Assembly (NCBI GenBank): GCA_903893485.1
Contig: CAITMK010000001.1
Coordinates: forward strand, 1-44,559
Length of the DNA stretch: 44,559 bases
Direction: 5' to 3'
From: Candidatus Magasanikiibacteriota bacterium
Lineage (GTDB): Bacteria; Patescibacteriota; Patescibacteriia; Magasanikbacterales; 2-02-FULL-50-9b
Every line of letters starts with the position of its first letter. Positions within the stretch are counted from its first letter, which is position 1. Shown here one piece after another: positions 8,801 through 41,546 of the stretch. The notes under the pieces are model-generated. The model did no database searches and was not told where the DNA came from. It saw nothing but the letters and a program-made list of their open reading frames with translations. A program made the translations under genes and the position numbers.

Positions 8801-8887
8801 GCCCAGATGGCGGAATTGGTAGACGCACAGGACTCAAAATCCTGCGGCCGCAAGGTCATGAGAGTTCGATTCTCTCTCTGGGCACCA
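8801..8887 (+). tRNA. tRNA-Leu(CAA)
   Basis: GCCCAGA/TCTGGGC acceptor stem, CAGGA-CTCAAAA-TCCTG anticodon arm, long variable arm, GTTCGA T-loop, encoded CCA. Confidence 0.97.
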
Positions 8888-8912
8888 GCCTCAATTTCAA
8901 AATATACCGCCC

Positions 8913-8985
<73 letters not shown>

Positions 8986-8986
<1 letters not shown>

Positions 8987-38222: not shown

Positions 38223-38690
38223 TTAGTAAGCGAAGTGAGCAAATGCACGGTTTGATTCTGCCATGCGATGTACGTCTGCACGTTTCTTCATAGCATCACC
38301 TTCACCTTTTGCAGCGAGCATGAATTCTTCTGCAAGTTTGTCCTTCATCGCGCGGCCTTTTTTGGCGCGTGCGGCGTTAATGATCCAGCGCATTGCCAAA
38401 GCATTTTTGCGTTCTGGTTTAACGGGGACTGGCACCTGGTAGTTTGAACCACCAACGCGCTTTGTTTTAACTTCAACAGATGGACCAACGTTGTTCAAAG
38501 CTGCTTCGAACACTTCCATTGGATCTTTGTCTTCTTTCTTTTTTACGATATCAAAAGCACCGTACACAATTCCTTGTGCAACAGATTTTTTGCCGCTTAA
38601 CATGAGGAAGTTAATAAACTTACCCAAGGTAACATTGTTATATAACGCGTCTGGCGCTGCCTCGCGTTTTGGAGCTTGTTTACCGCGCAT
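38223..38690 (-). CDS. rpsG: 30S ribosomal protein S7
   Basis: GKKSVA, RVGGSNYQVP, HRMAESNRAFAH. Confidence 0.98.
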   Translation of the reverse strand: MRGKQAPKREAAPDALYNNVTLGKFINFLMLSGKKSVAQGIVYGAFDIVKKKEDKDPMEVFEAALNNVGPSVEVKTKRVGGSNYQVPVPVKPERKNALAMRWIINAARAKKGRAMKDKLAEEFMLAAKGEGDAMKKRADVHRMAESNRAFAHFAY

Positions 38691-38692
38691 AT

Positions 38693-39151
38693 TTATTTCT
38701 TCTTTTTACCTTTAGCAACAGCTTTTACTGCTGGAGTCTTTGGACGTTTGACACCGTAAAGTGAACGGCTGCCACGACGATTTGCAACACCTTGCGCATC
38801 ATAAATACCACGCACAATGTGGTAACGAACACCTGGAAGATCTTTCACACGACCACCACGAATCATAACGATTGAGTGCTCCTGCAAGTTGTGACCTTCA
38901 CCTGGGATGTAGGCAGTGACTTCCATACCGTTAGAAAGGCGAACACGCGCGATCTTACGGATAGCTGAGTTAGGTTTTTTTGGGGTCATGGTAGTGACCT
39001 TGGTACAAACACCACGTTTAAATGGTGCGCCATCTAAAATTTGATGGCGACGGCGATGCAAAGAATCCAAAGTCCACTGCATTGCAGGGGATTTGCTCTT
39101 CGTCTTCGCCGTGGTACGCCCCTTGCGGAGCAATTGTGACATTGTTGGCAT
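38693..39151 (-). CDS. rpsL: 30S ribosomal protein S12
   Basis: [31 protein letters not shown]. Confidence 0.99.
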
Positions 39152-39163
39152 AAACACGGTTAC

Positions 39164-39225
39164 TCTGCGCACGGAAACATTCCGAGCCGCGCGGCAGATG
39201 AGAGAATAAATTTGAAAAGGAATGT
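39164..39225 (-). promoter_or_regulatory. Pseudoknotted 5' leader of rpsL (candidate ribosomal leader)
   Basis: +1 ACAUUCC is complementary to loop GGAAUGU of hairpin UCUGC-C-GCGCGG/CCGUGC-GCAGA. Confidence 0.5.
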
Positions 39226-39231
39226 AGCGGT

Positions 39232-39260
39232 AGTTTAAAGGAAATTGGCTGAGCTGTCAA
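39232..39260 (-). promoter_or_regulatory. sigma70 promoter of rpsL-rpsG-fusA
   Basis: TTGACA-17-TAAACT. Confidence 0.8.
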
Positions 39261-39264
39261 GTGA

Positions 39265-39293
39265 TTGACAATGTCCTAGAGGTGTGTAAAAAT
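39265..39293 (+). promoter_or_regulatory. Divergent promoter for the structured RNA
   Basis: TTGACA then TGTGTAAAAAT (imperfect -10, 16-17 bp spacing). Confidence 0.45.
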
Positions 39294-39294
39294 A

Positions 39295-39569
39295 TGCCCA
39301 AACAGCGATGGGCGCTTTTGTTACAAGTGGTCGGTAGTTACCGATGTGCGGGATCCCTTTTCGGGAAATGCAACTCTGACCCTCCCCTCTCTTCCTATTG
39401 CGTTGGACGAGAGGCATTCAAATAGGAGTTGCACAGCGGGCCGAAGGTCCAGGAGCTTGCGACGAGGTGGAGATTCCTCCCCGTCCCCACACAGTCCAGG
39501 CTCCTGGACCCGAGGCAACTCACAATCAACCCCACACCCAAGCCGAACGAACTGTTCGGCTATTTTTTT
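39295..39569 (+). ncRNA. Unassigned ~270-nt multi-stem RNA
   Basis: Stems UGCCCA/UGGGCG, GUCGGU/ACCGAU, UGCAACUC/GAGUUGCA, GGUCCAGGAGC/GCUCCUGGACC; terminator AGCCGAAC/GUUCGGCU + U-run; G-U pairs favour the plus strand. Confidence 0.65.
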
Positions 39570-39570
39570 G

Positions 39571-39631
39571 AAAAAAAAATCGGCAGTAGTACGGACCCGT
39601 GAAGTTCTGGGGTACGTATACTACTGCCGAT
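39571..39631 (-). terminator. Long-hairpin terminator of the orphan gene
   Basis: ATCGGCAGTAGTA / TACTACTGCCGAT 13-bp perfect stem followed by a T-run on the minus strand. Confidence 0.8.
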
Positions 39632-39655
39632 GCAGGGCTTACCTGCATGCGACAA

Positions 39656-40807
39656 TCACTGAAGCGGCAGATCGGGCACTTGCCACGTGCGACCGACGAG
39701 CGAGACGCTCTTCAACATGTCGCCCGCCACCGGTTCAGCAGCCGAGGGAATACGCTTGATTTCGGTATCCTGCCCCGCCGCAATGACATGCAACGCGCTG
39801 TCTGCTTTGATAATCGCGTCGGCCTCGCTGATCTTGGTCGATGCCCGGCTGCCGCCCTTCACCACGAGGTCAAGGCCGTCAGACAGATACGCCGTGAGCG
39901 CCTCAAAAAGCATCCCCCAAGCCGCCTCGCTCGGAGATGCGAAGAAGGTCTTCAGCGCCTCAAGGTACGCATCCCGAAGCGTCGAGCTCCGAAACACGCA
40001 GATATTCTCAGCAGAAAGCCAGCCGATGCCTTCGCTGAGAAGCCAGCCGATGCGCGGATCATCGACCTGCCGCACGAACTGGCCGAGCAGCAAATTCGCG
40101 GGCGACGACACCTCGACCGAGCCGATCGCGTGCGAAGGCGACTGCCGAAGCGCGGCAAGCACTTGATCGCCCCGGAATTCCGGATGGCAGATCATGCTGC
40201 AGCCCAGCAGATCCGGCAGGTTGATCGAGTACGGCGCGCGCGCAATGTCCATGACGAGGTTCTGCTCGGCAACCGGAAGCGCCGGGCAGACGATCTCCTT
40301 CACGTACGTGTTGGTATCAGAACTGGCGTTCGCCCGAAGCAAACGGTCCACGATCGCCGCCGATTCCTCGCTGACGCCGAGCATCATGAGAAAATCGGGG
40401 GCGAGAACGCGACCGGCCATCTTCTTGTAGTTCGCGCCGATCTGCGCCGCCGGAAACGTGAGCGCATGCGGACCAGCCTCAAGGTCAAGCATCTGGGCGA
40501 ATTCAGGACTCGCCGTAATGCCATGCATCTTGCCCTGCGAGACCGCCAGAAACTCCGCGAACGACGGCGCCGTGTCGCGACGAGCTCCGACGAGAATGCT
40601 CTCGCGAAGCAGGAGACGCCCTTCGGGCAAACGCAGAATTCCCTGAAGCGGCTCATTGGTCATGAGCCACGAGTCGGAAATAATCATCCGATCGTAGAGC
40701 AGCGCGTTGAGAACAATGCCGCGCCAAACCCGATCAACGGATTGGCCCGGAATGAGGTTGTCAAAGAGTACGCCGAACGCATCAATGAGAGTAACGGGAC
40801 GAAACAT
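39656..40807 (-). CDS. GC-rich orphan protein (383 aa), function unknown
   Basis: Own promoter, AAGGCAGGTG SD and terminator; protein-like composition; motifs NALLYDRMIISD, PYSINLP, LSAENICVFR. Confidence 0.8.
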   Translation of the reverse strand: MFRPVTLIDAFGVLFDNLIPGQSVDRVWRGIVLNALLYDRMIISDSWLMTNEPLQGILRLPEGRLLLRESILVGARRDTAPSFAEFLAVSQGKMHGITASPEFAQMLDLEAGPHALTFPAAQIGANYKKMAGRVLAPDFLMMLGVSEESAAIVDRLLRANASSDTNTYVKEIVCPALPVAEQNLVMDIARAPYSINLPDLLGCSMICHPEFRGDQVLAALRQSPSHAIGSVEVSSPANLLLGQFVRQVDDPRIGWLLSEGIGWLSAENICVFRSSTLRDAYLEALKTFFASPSEAAWGMLFEALTAYLSDGLDLVVKGGSRASTKISEADAIIKADSALHVIAAGQDTEIKRIPSAAEPVAGDMLKSVSLVGRTWQVPDLPLQ

Positions 40808-40847
40808 GAGTCACCTGCCTTTATTCGCGTCAGTGCGAATTGTACAG

Positions 40848-40876
40848 ATACTAGCAATCAGTACACAAATTGTCAA
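40848..40876 (-). promoter_or_regulatory. sigma70 promoter of the orphan gene
   Basis: TTGACA-17-TAGTAT. Confidence 0.7.
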
Positions 40877-40897
40877 CCCTCTCTTATACAACCCAAA

Positions 40898-41497
40898 TTA
40901 AGCCCCCAAGAGCAATCGTGCGAGCGCTTCAACAGGCACGGTAATGTATTGTCCAAAAAAGAAAACTAAAATTAAAACAGCAAAAAAACCGTAGCGTTCG
41001 AGTTTGTATTTAATGTAGTCGTAACGCACGGGCAGCAGCGCAAGTAAAATTTTTGAGCCGTCGAGTGGAGGAATTGGCACCAAATTAAAAATCGCGAGTG
41101 AGCAGTTGATAATGACCACGCGCACCGCAATATAGGCGATAGCGCTATTAACACCAAAACCGCGCGCGACCAATGCAAATAAAATAGCAAGCACTAAATT
41201 GGTAATTGGCCCAGCCGCGCCAACAGCCGCAGGCCCCCACTGCTGATTTTTTAAATTGTAGGGATTATAAGGAACTGGTTTTGCCGCGGCAAAGAAAAAG
41301 GTCCCGCCAGACAAAAACCAAAGCCCCAGCGGCAACAAAATTGAACCATATAAATCAAGATGCACTAAAGGATTTAAGGTCAAACGCCCTGCTCGCTCCG
41401 CGGTTTTATCGCCGAGCGCGCGTGCGGCCAGCCCATGTGACACCTCGTGCAGCACTGCAGAAAAGATAACAATAATAATGTCGAAAATGAAATCCAT
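40898..41497 (-). CDS. Site-2 protease family (M50) membrane metalloprotease
   Basis: LHEVSHG (HExxH), AGPITN, FNLVPIPPLDGS; start MDFIFD. Confidence 0.93.
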   Translation of the reverse strand: MDFIFDIIIVIFSAVLHEVSHGLAARALGDKTAERAGRLTLNPLVHLDLYGSILLPLGLWFLSGGTFFFAAAKPVPYNPYNLKNQQWGPAAVGAAGPITNLVLAILFALVARGFGVNSAIAYIAVRVVIINCSLAIFNLVPIPPLDGSKILLALLPVRYDYIKYKLERYGFFAVLILVFFFGQYITVPVEALARLLLGA

Positions 41498-41517
41498 AGA
41501 AGTTTTGGTTGCGGCCC

Positions 41518-41546
41518 TTGCCAAAAAACAGAATACCTGATAAACT
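41518..41546 (+). promoter_or_regulatory. sigma70 promoter of rpmB
   Basis: TTGCCA-17-TAAACT. Confidence 0.65.

Follow-up and report, generated by a model that had tools for sequence, protein, structure and literature searches.

We describe a candidate non-coding RNA (ncRNA) unit at positions 39265 to 39569 of a 44,559-nucleotide (nt) stretch of DNA, here called the window, which is contig 1 of the genome of a Candidatus Magasanikiibacteriota bacterium (GenBank: GCA_903893485.1, contig CAITMK010000001.1). Our preferred reading, which we hold only tentatively, is that the unit is an accessory, single-copy ncRNA cassette that was built in part from recycled cassette-leader DNA. The basis for this reading is that the unit is bounded by its own transcription signals, contains no credible open reading frame (ORF), has an exceptional fold, belongs to no known RNA family and is absent from all relatives that were searched. 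From these sequence features we infer transcription from the plus strand and a stable RNA product. Nearly as likely is that the stretch is debris of decayed cassettes.

The bounds of the unit had been claimed in an earlier note on this DNA, which was made from its letters and open reading frames. Both the promoter-like site and the intrinsic terminator were found in our scans. The signals and the RNA deduced from them are the following:

39265 to 39293, plus strand: promoter-like site of the candidate RNA, TTGACA, 17 nt, AAAAAT, with TG before the -10 (10 of 12 matches)
39296 to 39313, both strands: small 5-bp hairpin with an A-run on one side and a T-run on the other, terminator-like on either strand
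39300 to 39569, plus strand: predicted RNA of about 270 nt, with ends deduced from promoter and terminator
39541 to 39569, plus strand: intrinsic terminator with a short loop and seven T (9-pair stem in the scan, 8 pairs in the minimum free energy (MFE) fold)

The promoter scan found four sites in 2 kb, compared to 0.9 +/- 1.0 in shuffled sequences. The terminator stem has a pair probability of 1.0 in the ensemble, and the small hairpin overlaps the predicted transcription start.

The plus strand of the stretch folds much better than shuffled sequences do. Its MFE is -115 kcal/mol, against -85.6 +/- 4.8 kcal/mol for 200 dinucleotide shuffles, none of which was as good (z -6.13). We also ran a sliding control with 240-nt windows from 38400 to 41519, in which the two windows over the stretch scored z -5.7 and -5.6 on the plus strand, while windows over coding sequence in the same G+C-rich insert scored between +1.2 and -2.9. 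Because these coding windows score far weaker, the folding signal is real and local. It is mainly carried by the 14-bp stem of Domain 2 together with the 9-bp and 6-bp helices of Domain 1. The predicted fold consists of these elements:

39330 to 39345, plus strand: 6-bp hairpin of the MFE fold
39346 to 39537, plus strand: multi-branch core of the MFE fold, closed by 3+3 pairs (39346 to 39352 with 39531 to 39537) and containing a 4-bp hairpin (39354 to 39366), Domain 1 and Domain 2
39369 to 39433, plus strand: Domain 1, with a 9-bp closing stem and an inner 6-bp helix (39386 to 39391 with 39409 to 39414), pair probabilities 0.76 to 1.0
39440 to 39516, plus strand: Domain 2, a 77-nt rod with a 14-bp stem (39446 to 39459 with 39497 to 39510) and internal loops, pair probabilities about 1.0

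The helix closing the core has an ensemble probability of only about 0.6. In Domain 2 the stem comprises 11 perfect pairs and three more, one of which is G-U, and the apical loop of 8 nt contains the motif CCUCC. A perfect 11-bp stem is rare, occurring in 31 of 5000 dinucleotide shuffles. The minus strand folds with a z-score of -4.05, which is weaker than that of the plus strand. Overall the strand of the candidate RNA is uncertain; its assignment to the plus strand is suggested by the promoter and terminator signals and by the stronger z-score of that strand.

The motifs that the earlier note had named are all present. These are an 8-mer at 39369 with its complement at 39426, the perfect stem at 39446/39500 (which extends to the 14 pairs given above), the crossing helices 39386/39409 and 39393/39421 as complementary stretches, the repeats of a 7-mer at 39370 and 39515 and of an 8-mer at 39485 and 39530, and the complementarity between 39345 and 39484. 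The candidate crossing helix in Domain 1 (39393 to 39399 with 39421 to 39427) would form an H-type pseudoknot. Two descriptions drawn from these motifs did not stand. The RNA had been called pseudoknot-rich, which is not above chance, as an equivalent H-type pseudoknot of 6+7 bp is found in 625 of 5000 dinucleotide shuffles; perfect 8-bp stems occur in 1491, repeated 7-mers in 4354 and repeated 8-mers in 2061 of the same number. It had also been called possibly bistable, which has no thermodynamic support: forcing the two alternative pairings costs +7.8 and +14.4 kcal/mol, and the ensemble probability of both is about zero.

That the region contains no credible ORF was confirmed. None of the eight ORFs across the region (40 to 137 amino acids (aa)) has a Pfam match at E<=0.1, and no relatives were found for the 57-aa plus-strand ORF starting at TTG 39429. 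The 3' half of the stretch has a three-base periodicity in G+C content (0.82 in one phase), the spread of which is reached by 33 of 2000 shuffles. The phase of this periodicity fits the 57-aa frame, and an AGGAG is positioned just upstream of its TTG, so one could think of a small protein gene here. However, the AGGAG abuts the TTG with no spacer, and the frame, besides being without relative or Pfam match, crosses the terminator hairpin and its T-run into the next terminator. Hence we regard a small protein gene, for example in this frame, as hardly credible.

To place the unit among the known RNA classes, we searched the whole window with Rfam 15 (4227 models), a scan which the earlier note had proposed. 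At gathering score only two tRNAs were found, at positions 8801 to 8986. At E<=10 there were six matches in the region, to microRNA, long non-coding RNA and small RNA models, all far below gathering; the best of them is a eukaryotic microRNA hairpin model on the minus strand with 26 bits, where the gathering score is 54. ARAGORN made no call between 39100 and 39700. The statement that signatures of ribonuclease P (RNase P) RNA, transfer-messenger RNA (tmRNA), signal recognition particle (SRP) RNA, 6S RNA, T-box and cobalamin elements are absent here therefore holds in the Rfam and ARAGORN searches, and the proposed scan returned no known family for the region. RNase P RNA and tmRNA are found elsewhere in the genome (C12:52563-52962 with 125.5 bits and C14:93499-93898 with 125.1 bits). 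A riboswitch or other cis-acting leader was considered as well; there is no match to a known aptamer, and the unit ends at its terminator, facing a convergent gene. This gene encodes the orphan protein P0001, which has no PADLOC match, and there is no family of direct repeats within the unit as would be looked for in a type III toxin-antitoxin RNA. Neither is there a neighbouring gene of the families that accompany retron msr/msd or TnpB, IscB and IS110 guide RNAs, the neighbours being P0001, ribosomal protein S12 and an M50 peptidase. In those parts of the literature on noncoding RNA and covariation in Patescibacteria, and on SRP RNA in the Candidate Phyla Radiation (CPR), that were available to us, no description of such RNAs was found. 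The candidate RNA belongs to no described RNA family.

SRP RNA (Rfam: RF00169, RF01854) and 6S RNA (Rfam: RF00013) have no match in the source genome, which is 98.85% complete, nor over the region at E<=10. RF00169 matches none of 41 genomes of the order, source genome included, and 12 to 13 of 14 control genomes. Since the controls match and RNase P RNA and tmRNA were detected in the source genome, either the SRP RNA of this order has diverged strongly or the first-look filter of the search overlooks it. One could suppose that the unit is this divergent housekeeping RNA, SRP or 6S, and a housekeeping RNA co-regulated with the str operon was among the proposals of the earlier note. Such an RNA would be shared by the relatives, but the unit is missing from six of six other genomes of the family and from all 239 other genomes of the order that were searched. 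Moreover, it is located in compositionally foreign DNA, and the homology with relatives ends at the -35 of the rpsL promoter. We consider the probability of a divergent housekeeping RNA to be close to negligible.

The G+C content jumps from about 43% in the flanks to 56-65% between 39262 and about 40890. This insert of about 1.6 kb is compositionally foreign DNA and holds two convergent units, the candidate RNA on the plus strand at its left end and the P0001 gene on the minus strand at its right. It is situated between the rpsL promoter and the M50 peptidase gene of the 0.95 Mb source genome. To the left of the candidate RNA, the minus strand of the window carries fusA, rpsG and rpsL. DNA runs from lake water contain the source organism. 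In a read survey, one lake-water study had four DNA runs carrying the insert, none of which showed a difference within it or a joint skipping it. No RNA run was listed among those that carry this DNA, which is neutral as to expression. No convincing direct repeats that would mark an insertion flank the insert.

In five relatives (G001 and G003 to G006), BLAST homology to the window stops between 39204 and 39261, which is at the -35 of this promoter or slightly short of it:

39232 to 39260, minus strand: promoter of rpsL (str operon), TTGACA at 39260 to 39255, 17-nt spacer, TAAACT, from a consensus scan

The -35 block is the last block conserved with the relatives and is visible in the sequences of all five; beyond it, each of them has different DNA. 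G003 and G006 retain the M50 gene as neighbour, across a gap of 435 to 590 bp compared to about 1.7 kb here. The slot between the rpsL promoter and the M50 gene is hypervariable.

Two further observations concern this promoter. The rpsL promoter and the promoter-like site of the RNA have their -35 hexamers back to back, 4 bp apart, in a 16-bp palindrome (39255 to 39270). Simultaneous polymerase occupancy of both sites would hardly be possible, and because the shared palindrome leaves little room for two polymerases, the insert may affect transcription of the str operon. The leader of rpsL together with the beginning of the gene (38880 to 39239, minus strand) folds more stably than shuffles, at z -3.3 to -4.2 in 240-nt windows, and conservation of the leader sequence extends to all five relatives. 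This part may be a regulatory leader for S12 or the str operon.

The only similarity of the unit to anything outside the source genome is found in Domain 1, to a piece of G118, a genome of another family in the same order:

39377 to 39410, minus strand: G118-like segment, 30 of 34 positions identical to a 5' leader and Shine-Dalgarno (SD) block

Read on the opposite strand, this piece of G118 is the 5' leader and SD directly before the ATG of a 121-aa orphan gene. That gene (L030:642-1046) has a G+C content of 60%, A+T-rich flanks and no Pfam family, and judging from these features it is a typical cassette gene. The BLAST match has an E-value of 6.3e-4 for one genome, which corresponds to about 0.15 over 240 genomes. 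Its exact core pattern is found in two of 240 genomes of the order, with no matches in the controls, but the pattern was derived from the BLAST match and is not independent of it. The position directly before an ATG lends the match additional weight. Within the window, a TTG and no more than 11 codons come after the leader and SD on the minus strand. No second copy of this leader module was found in the source genome, so it is unique there. Part of Domain 1 is thus recycled cassette-leader DNA in reverse. The reversed leader is compatible either with an RNA carrying an anti-leader or anti-SD tract or with debris of a decayed cassette. The sharing of this leader points to a movement of control modules from one cassette to another, unrelated one.

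The orientation of the leader also bears on the minus strand. The stretch might belong to the P0001 transcription unit as its distal 3' region, perhaps with a lost second gene of which leader, SD and micro-ORF (TTG at 39373, 11 codons) are left, and the hairpin at 39313 to 39296 with its T5 would then shield the rpsL promoter from read-through. The leader and SD of the G118 type are in functional orientation on this strand with 6-nt spacing to the TTG, the terminator-like hairpin is followed by T5 in the same direction, and the strand folds well and has more G-U pairs than its complement. Yet no promoter-like site is present on the minus strand between 39655 and 39415, the very strong terminator of P0001 itself comes before the region, the micro-ORF is very short and the z-score falls behind that of the plus strand. 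A minus-strand element is in our view unlikely.

The second unit of the insert has its own signals, and its terminator is arranged tail to tail with that of the RNA:

39570 to 39631, minus strand: P0001 terminator, 13-bp perfect stem, then T9 on the minus strand
39656 to 40807, minus strand: P0001 gene, 383 aa, G+C about 62%, convergent with the RNA unit
40848 to 40876, minus strand: P0001 promoter-like site, TTGACA, 17 nt, TAGTAT, with TG before the -10

P0001 has no family in Pfam, NCBIfam, PADLOC or PHROGs. Its own family comprises 38 representatives, including the query, among 1.84 billion proteins, and among 401 genomes of the phylum it is found in the source genome only. With tblastn no relatives were found in plasmids and phages, and locus scans found none in metagenome and viral contigs. 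In another order, whose genomes are of about 1 Mb, a locus scan with a 6-sequence alignment gave relatives in 3 of 127 genomes; their three loci have different contexts, one after tsf and another before a CIRCE-groES region. By eye, the relatives examined (L045:2963-4149, L062 and L063) are G+C-rich single genes amid more A+T-rich DNA. Members of the family are about 380 to 450 aa long and share the nearly invariant residues D16, N17, D45, W47, R77, Y127, N166, R190 and Y193. The structure model of P0001 is confident, with a mean predicted local distance difference test score of 81. With this model, Foldseek gave no match in PDB at E<=0.001; VIA-align gave tyrosyl-tRNA synthetase as best match (Z 6.6) and cyclodipeptide synthases and VapC PIN toxins at Z 5 to 6.2, a range that the tool itself calls common; and a protein atlas pointed to restriction-endonuclease-like clusters at 0.78 to 0.81, which is below its own trust bar. 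These modelled fold matches are too weak to name a function.

It had been suggested that the candidate is the RNA partner of this adjacent orphan protein. We checked the co-occurrence with a covariance model built from the single sequence of the unit (R1; 201 positions, 56 pairs). At E<=0.01, R1 has no match near the relatives of P0001 at any of the three loci (L045/L061, L062 and L063), and directly after each of the relative genes a terminator or other DNA is found. Since these three loci are without the unit, the candidate RNA does not appear to be a conserved partner of the P0001 family.

The same loci bear on a reading as a sensor-controlled antisense RNA, in which a folded domain would set the choice between a stop at 39541 to 39569 and reading on into an antisense transcript of P0001. 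The layout resembles this, with a promoter, about 240 nt of folded domain, a terminator and a convergent gene 87 bp further on. On the other hand, no known aptamer was found, the terminator stem forms with a probability of 1.0, the alternative foldings are 7.8 to 14.4 kcal/mol worse, and the relatives of P0001 do without such a unit. We judge this reading to be quite improbable.

Returning to the ncRNA cassette, a sigma-70-type promoter of its own would drive a self-contained non-coding unit. The G+C-rich body of about 270 nt would fold into two small 5' hairpins and the multi-branch core with its two stable domains, and the unit would end at its own intrinsic terminator. The most speculative step is that the RNA may act in trans, as an anti-SD or antisense RNA, by pairing with the purine-rich SD leaders of G+C-rich cassette mRNAs. 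We propose this because Domain 1 contains, in reverse complement, a cassette-type leader with its ribosome binding site and because two CCUCC motifs are placed in predicted loops. Compared to SD pairing, we consider enzymatic or housekeeping functions much less likely. One may go further and see in the unit the first representative of a new RNA class, large accessory RNAs of G+C-rich CPR cassettes, forming a two-part conflict module with P0001, whose model has a faint likeness to class-I tRNA synthetase, cyclodipeptide synthase and PIN folds. In this module the RNA could neutralise or guide P0001, or silence SD-led cassette mRNAs via its CU-rich loops. This extension we consider very improbable.

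Several points weigh against the ncRNA cassette. The unit is known in one copy only, hence there is no covariation support: with BLAST no second copy was found in the source genome, the six other family genomes lack the unit, and none of the 239 other genomes of the order has a genuine match. Of these, 15 had matches at E<=0.01, and all but G118 matched the A/T-rich terminator run (query positions 283 to 348). R1 found no match in 150 genomes of the order, and only one, at chance level, in 150 genomes of the class; this match in G829 (E 0.04 for one genome) is inside a 658-aa ORF and was rejected. R1 also has no match in genome G630 or in nine loci, blastn against plasmid and phage collections gave no match, and exact 25-mers of the unit are not found in metagenome or viral contigs. 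At the promoter, the -10 and the small hairpin at 39296 to 39313 share one run of A, which serves the hairpin as its A-tract. G-U pairs number 5 on the plus strand and 11 on the minus strand, which does not favour the plus strand, and the helix predicted over 39377 to 39410 is not kept in G118. As to targets, there is no extended complementarity elsewhere in the genome, the best being a 16-mer of the same sense as a gene. The duplex energy with the P0001 leader has a z-score of -0.76 (63 of 300 shuffles as good) and that with the rpsL leader a z-score of -1.58 (22 of 300), both of which are unremarkable. The two CCUCC motifs of the predicted loops are close to what chance would give in a C-rich 270-mer, about 0.5 by our own estimate. 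Finally, the periodicity of the 3' half hints at coding ancestry.

These points leave room for the debris, which would be a mosaic of decayed G+C-rich cassettes without selected RNA function, maybe transcribed. The mosaic would comprise an inverted leader and SD, a former hairpin or terminator and coding remnants, and a few palindromes from the control regions of cassettes would account for its strong fold. The sole outside similarity, a cassette leader and SD in opposite orientation followed by a few codons on the minus strand, is in line with this, as is the periodicity, which is of the size seen in the coding windows of P0001. So are the single copy without conservation, the quite different DNA in the same slot of the relatives, and the chance level of most helices and repeats that had been named. 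Arguing for the ncRNA cassette instead, the fold at z -5.7 is well beyond the real coding sequence of the insert, the promoter and the terminator are intact and correctly placed, and no frame has a protein relative or a Pfam match. In addition, all four Arg of the 57-aa frame use AGR codons, whereas P0001, read by eye, mostly uses CGN. We hold debris to be nearly as likely as the ncRNA cassette, which we keep as our first, tentative choice.

With only one copy known, the new class of large ncRNA that the earlier note had inferred cannot be claimed. From the description as an unassigned ncRNA, the lack of an Rfam match and the non-coding transcription unit, which is still the best reading, stood; a conserved structure was not found as far as this could be tested.

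Beside rpsL, relatives from this bacterial family have another structured element, which we describe in its own right. It is a dispersed repeat with a conserved core of about 100 nt that contains a three-way junction. The core is enclosed by a stem of about 20 bp whose sequence varies from copy to copy while its pairing is kept in all of them. In 10 copies from G002, G003, G004 and G006, compensatory changes are found at 37 of the 51 predicted pairs. The copies beside rpsL and those in the source genome are:

L049:1501-1656, genome G004: repeat copy beside the rpsL promoter
L017:1950-2059, genome G006: repeat copy beside rpsL
C9:53355-53472, C3:71225-71339 and C3:71394-71512, source genome (G000): three repeat copies

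The copies in G004 and G006 occupy the exact place that the RNA cassette has in the window. Runs of A and T border the three copies of the source genome, as in bidirectional terminators; two of these copies adjoin what by eye look like the ends of tRNA genes. The repeat has no match in Rfam (best E 0.4). We built a covariance model from the 10 copies (R2), which recovers the G006 copy beside rpsL (E 5e-08) and the three copies in the source genome. In the window R2 finds nothing at E<=1, and the candidate RNA as a diverged copy of the repeat was rejected on this ground. The rod-like elements beside rpsL in G004 and G006 were also considered as SRP RNA and rejected, since they are members of the multi-copy repeat.

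If the unit is transcribed, the question arises what selects for such RNAs in 1-Mb genomes. Two negatives are useful in themselves: the unit is not the missing SRP or 6S RNA of the group, and it is not tied to the P0001 family.

Among known systems, the unit would be grouped with orphan stand-alone structured RNAs and with accessory units resembling morons. The large orphan structured bacterial ncRNAs, namely the raiA motif, OLE, ROOL and GOLLD, have their own promoters and terminators and are all in Rfam. The unit is like them in its size of a few hundred nt, its multi-branch fold with very stable helices, its stand-alone organisation and its lack of an ORF. They differ from it in having many diverged members with covariation, while the unit is a single copy without Rfam match. 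There are also riboswitch-controlled antisense transcripts, such as the B12-controlled antisense to pocR in Listeria, with which the unit shares a folded leader followed by a terminator and facing a convergent gene. In contrast to the pocR antisense, it has no known aptamer and no competing anti-terminator of comparable energy, and it is not conserved together with the gene.

Small RNAs of the RsaE/RoxS type have C-rich loops that pair with SD regions; they are about 100 nt long and conserved. The candidate RNA differs from these in being about 270 nt long and not conserved and in having no target of extended complementarity in the genome. Like them it has CCUCC tracts in predicted loops, one of these tracts being exactly complementary to an actual SD leader in G118. 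The last comparison is with phage 'morons' and flexible genomic islets. Morons and most cassettes encode proteins, whereas the unit has no credible ORF. No phage or plasmid relative was found for it. What it has in common with morons and islets is an atypical composition, a promoter and terminator of its own, a position between conserved genes, and a slot whose content differs among relatives.

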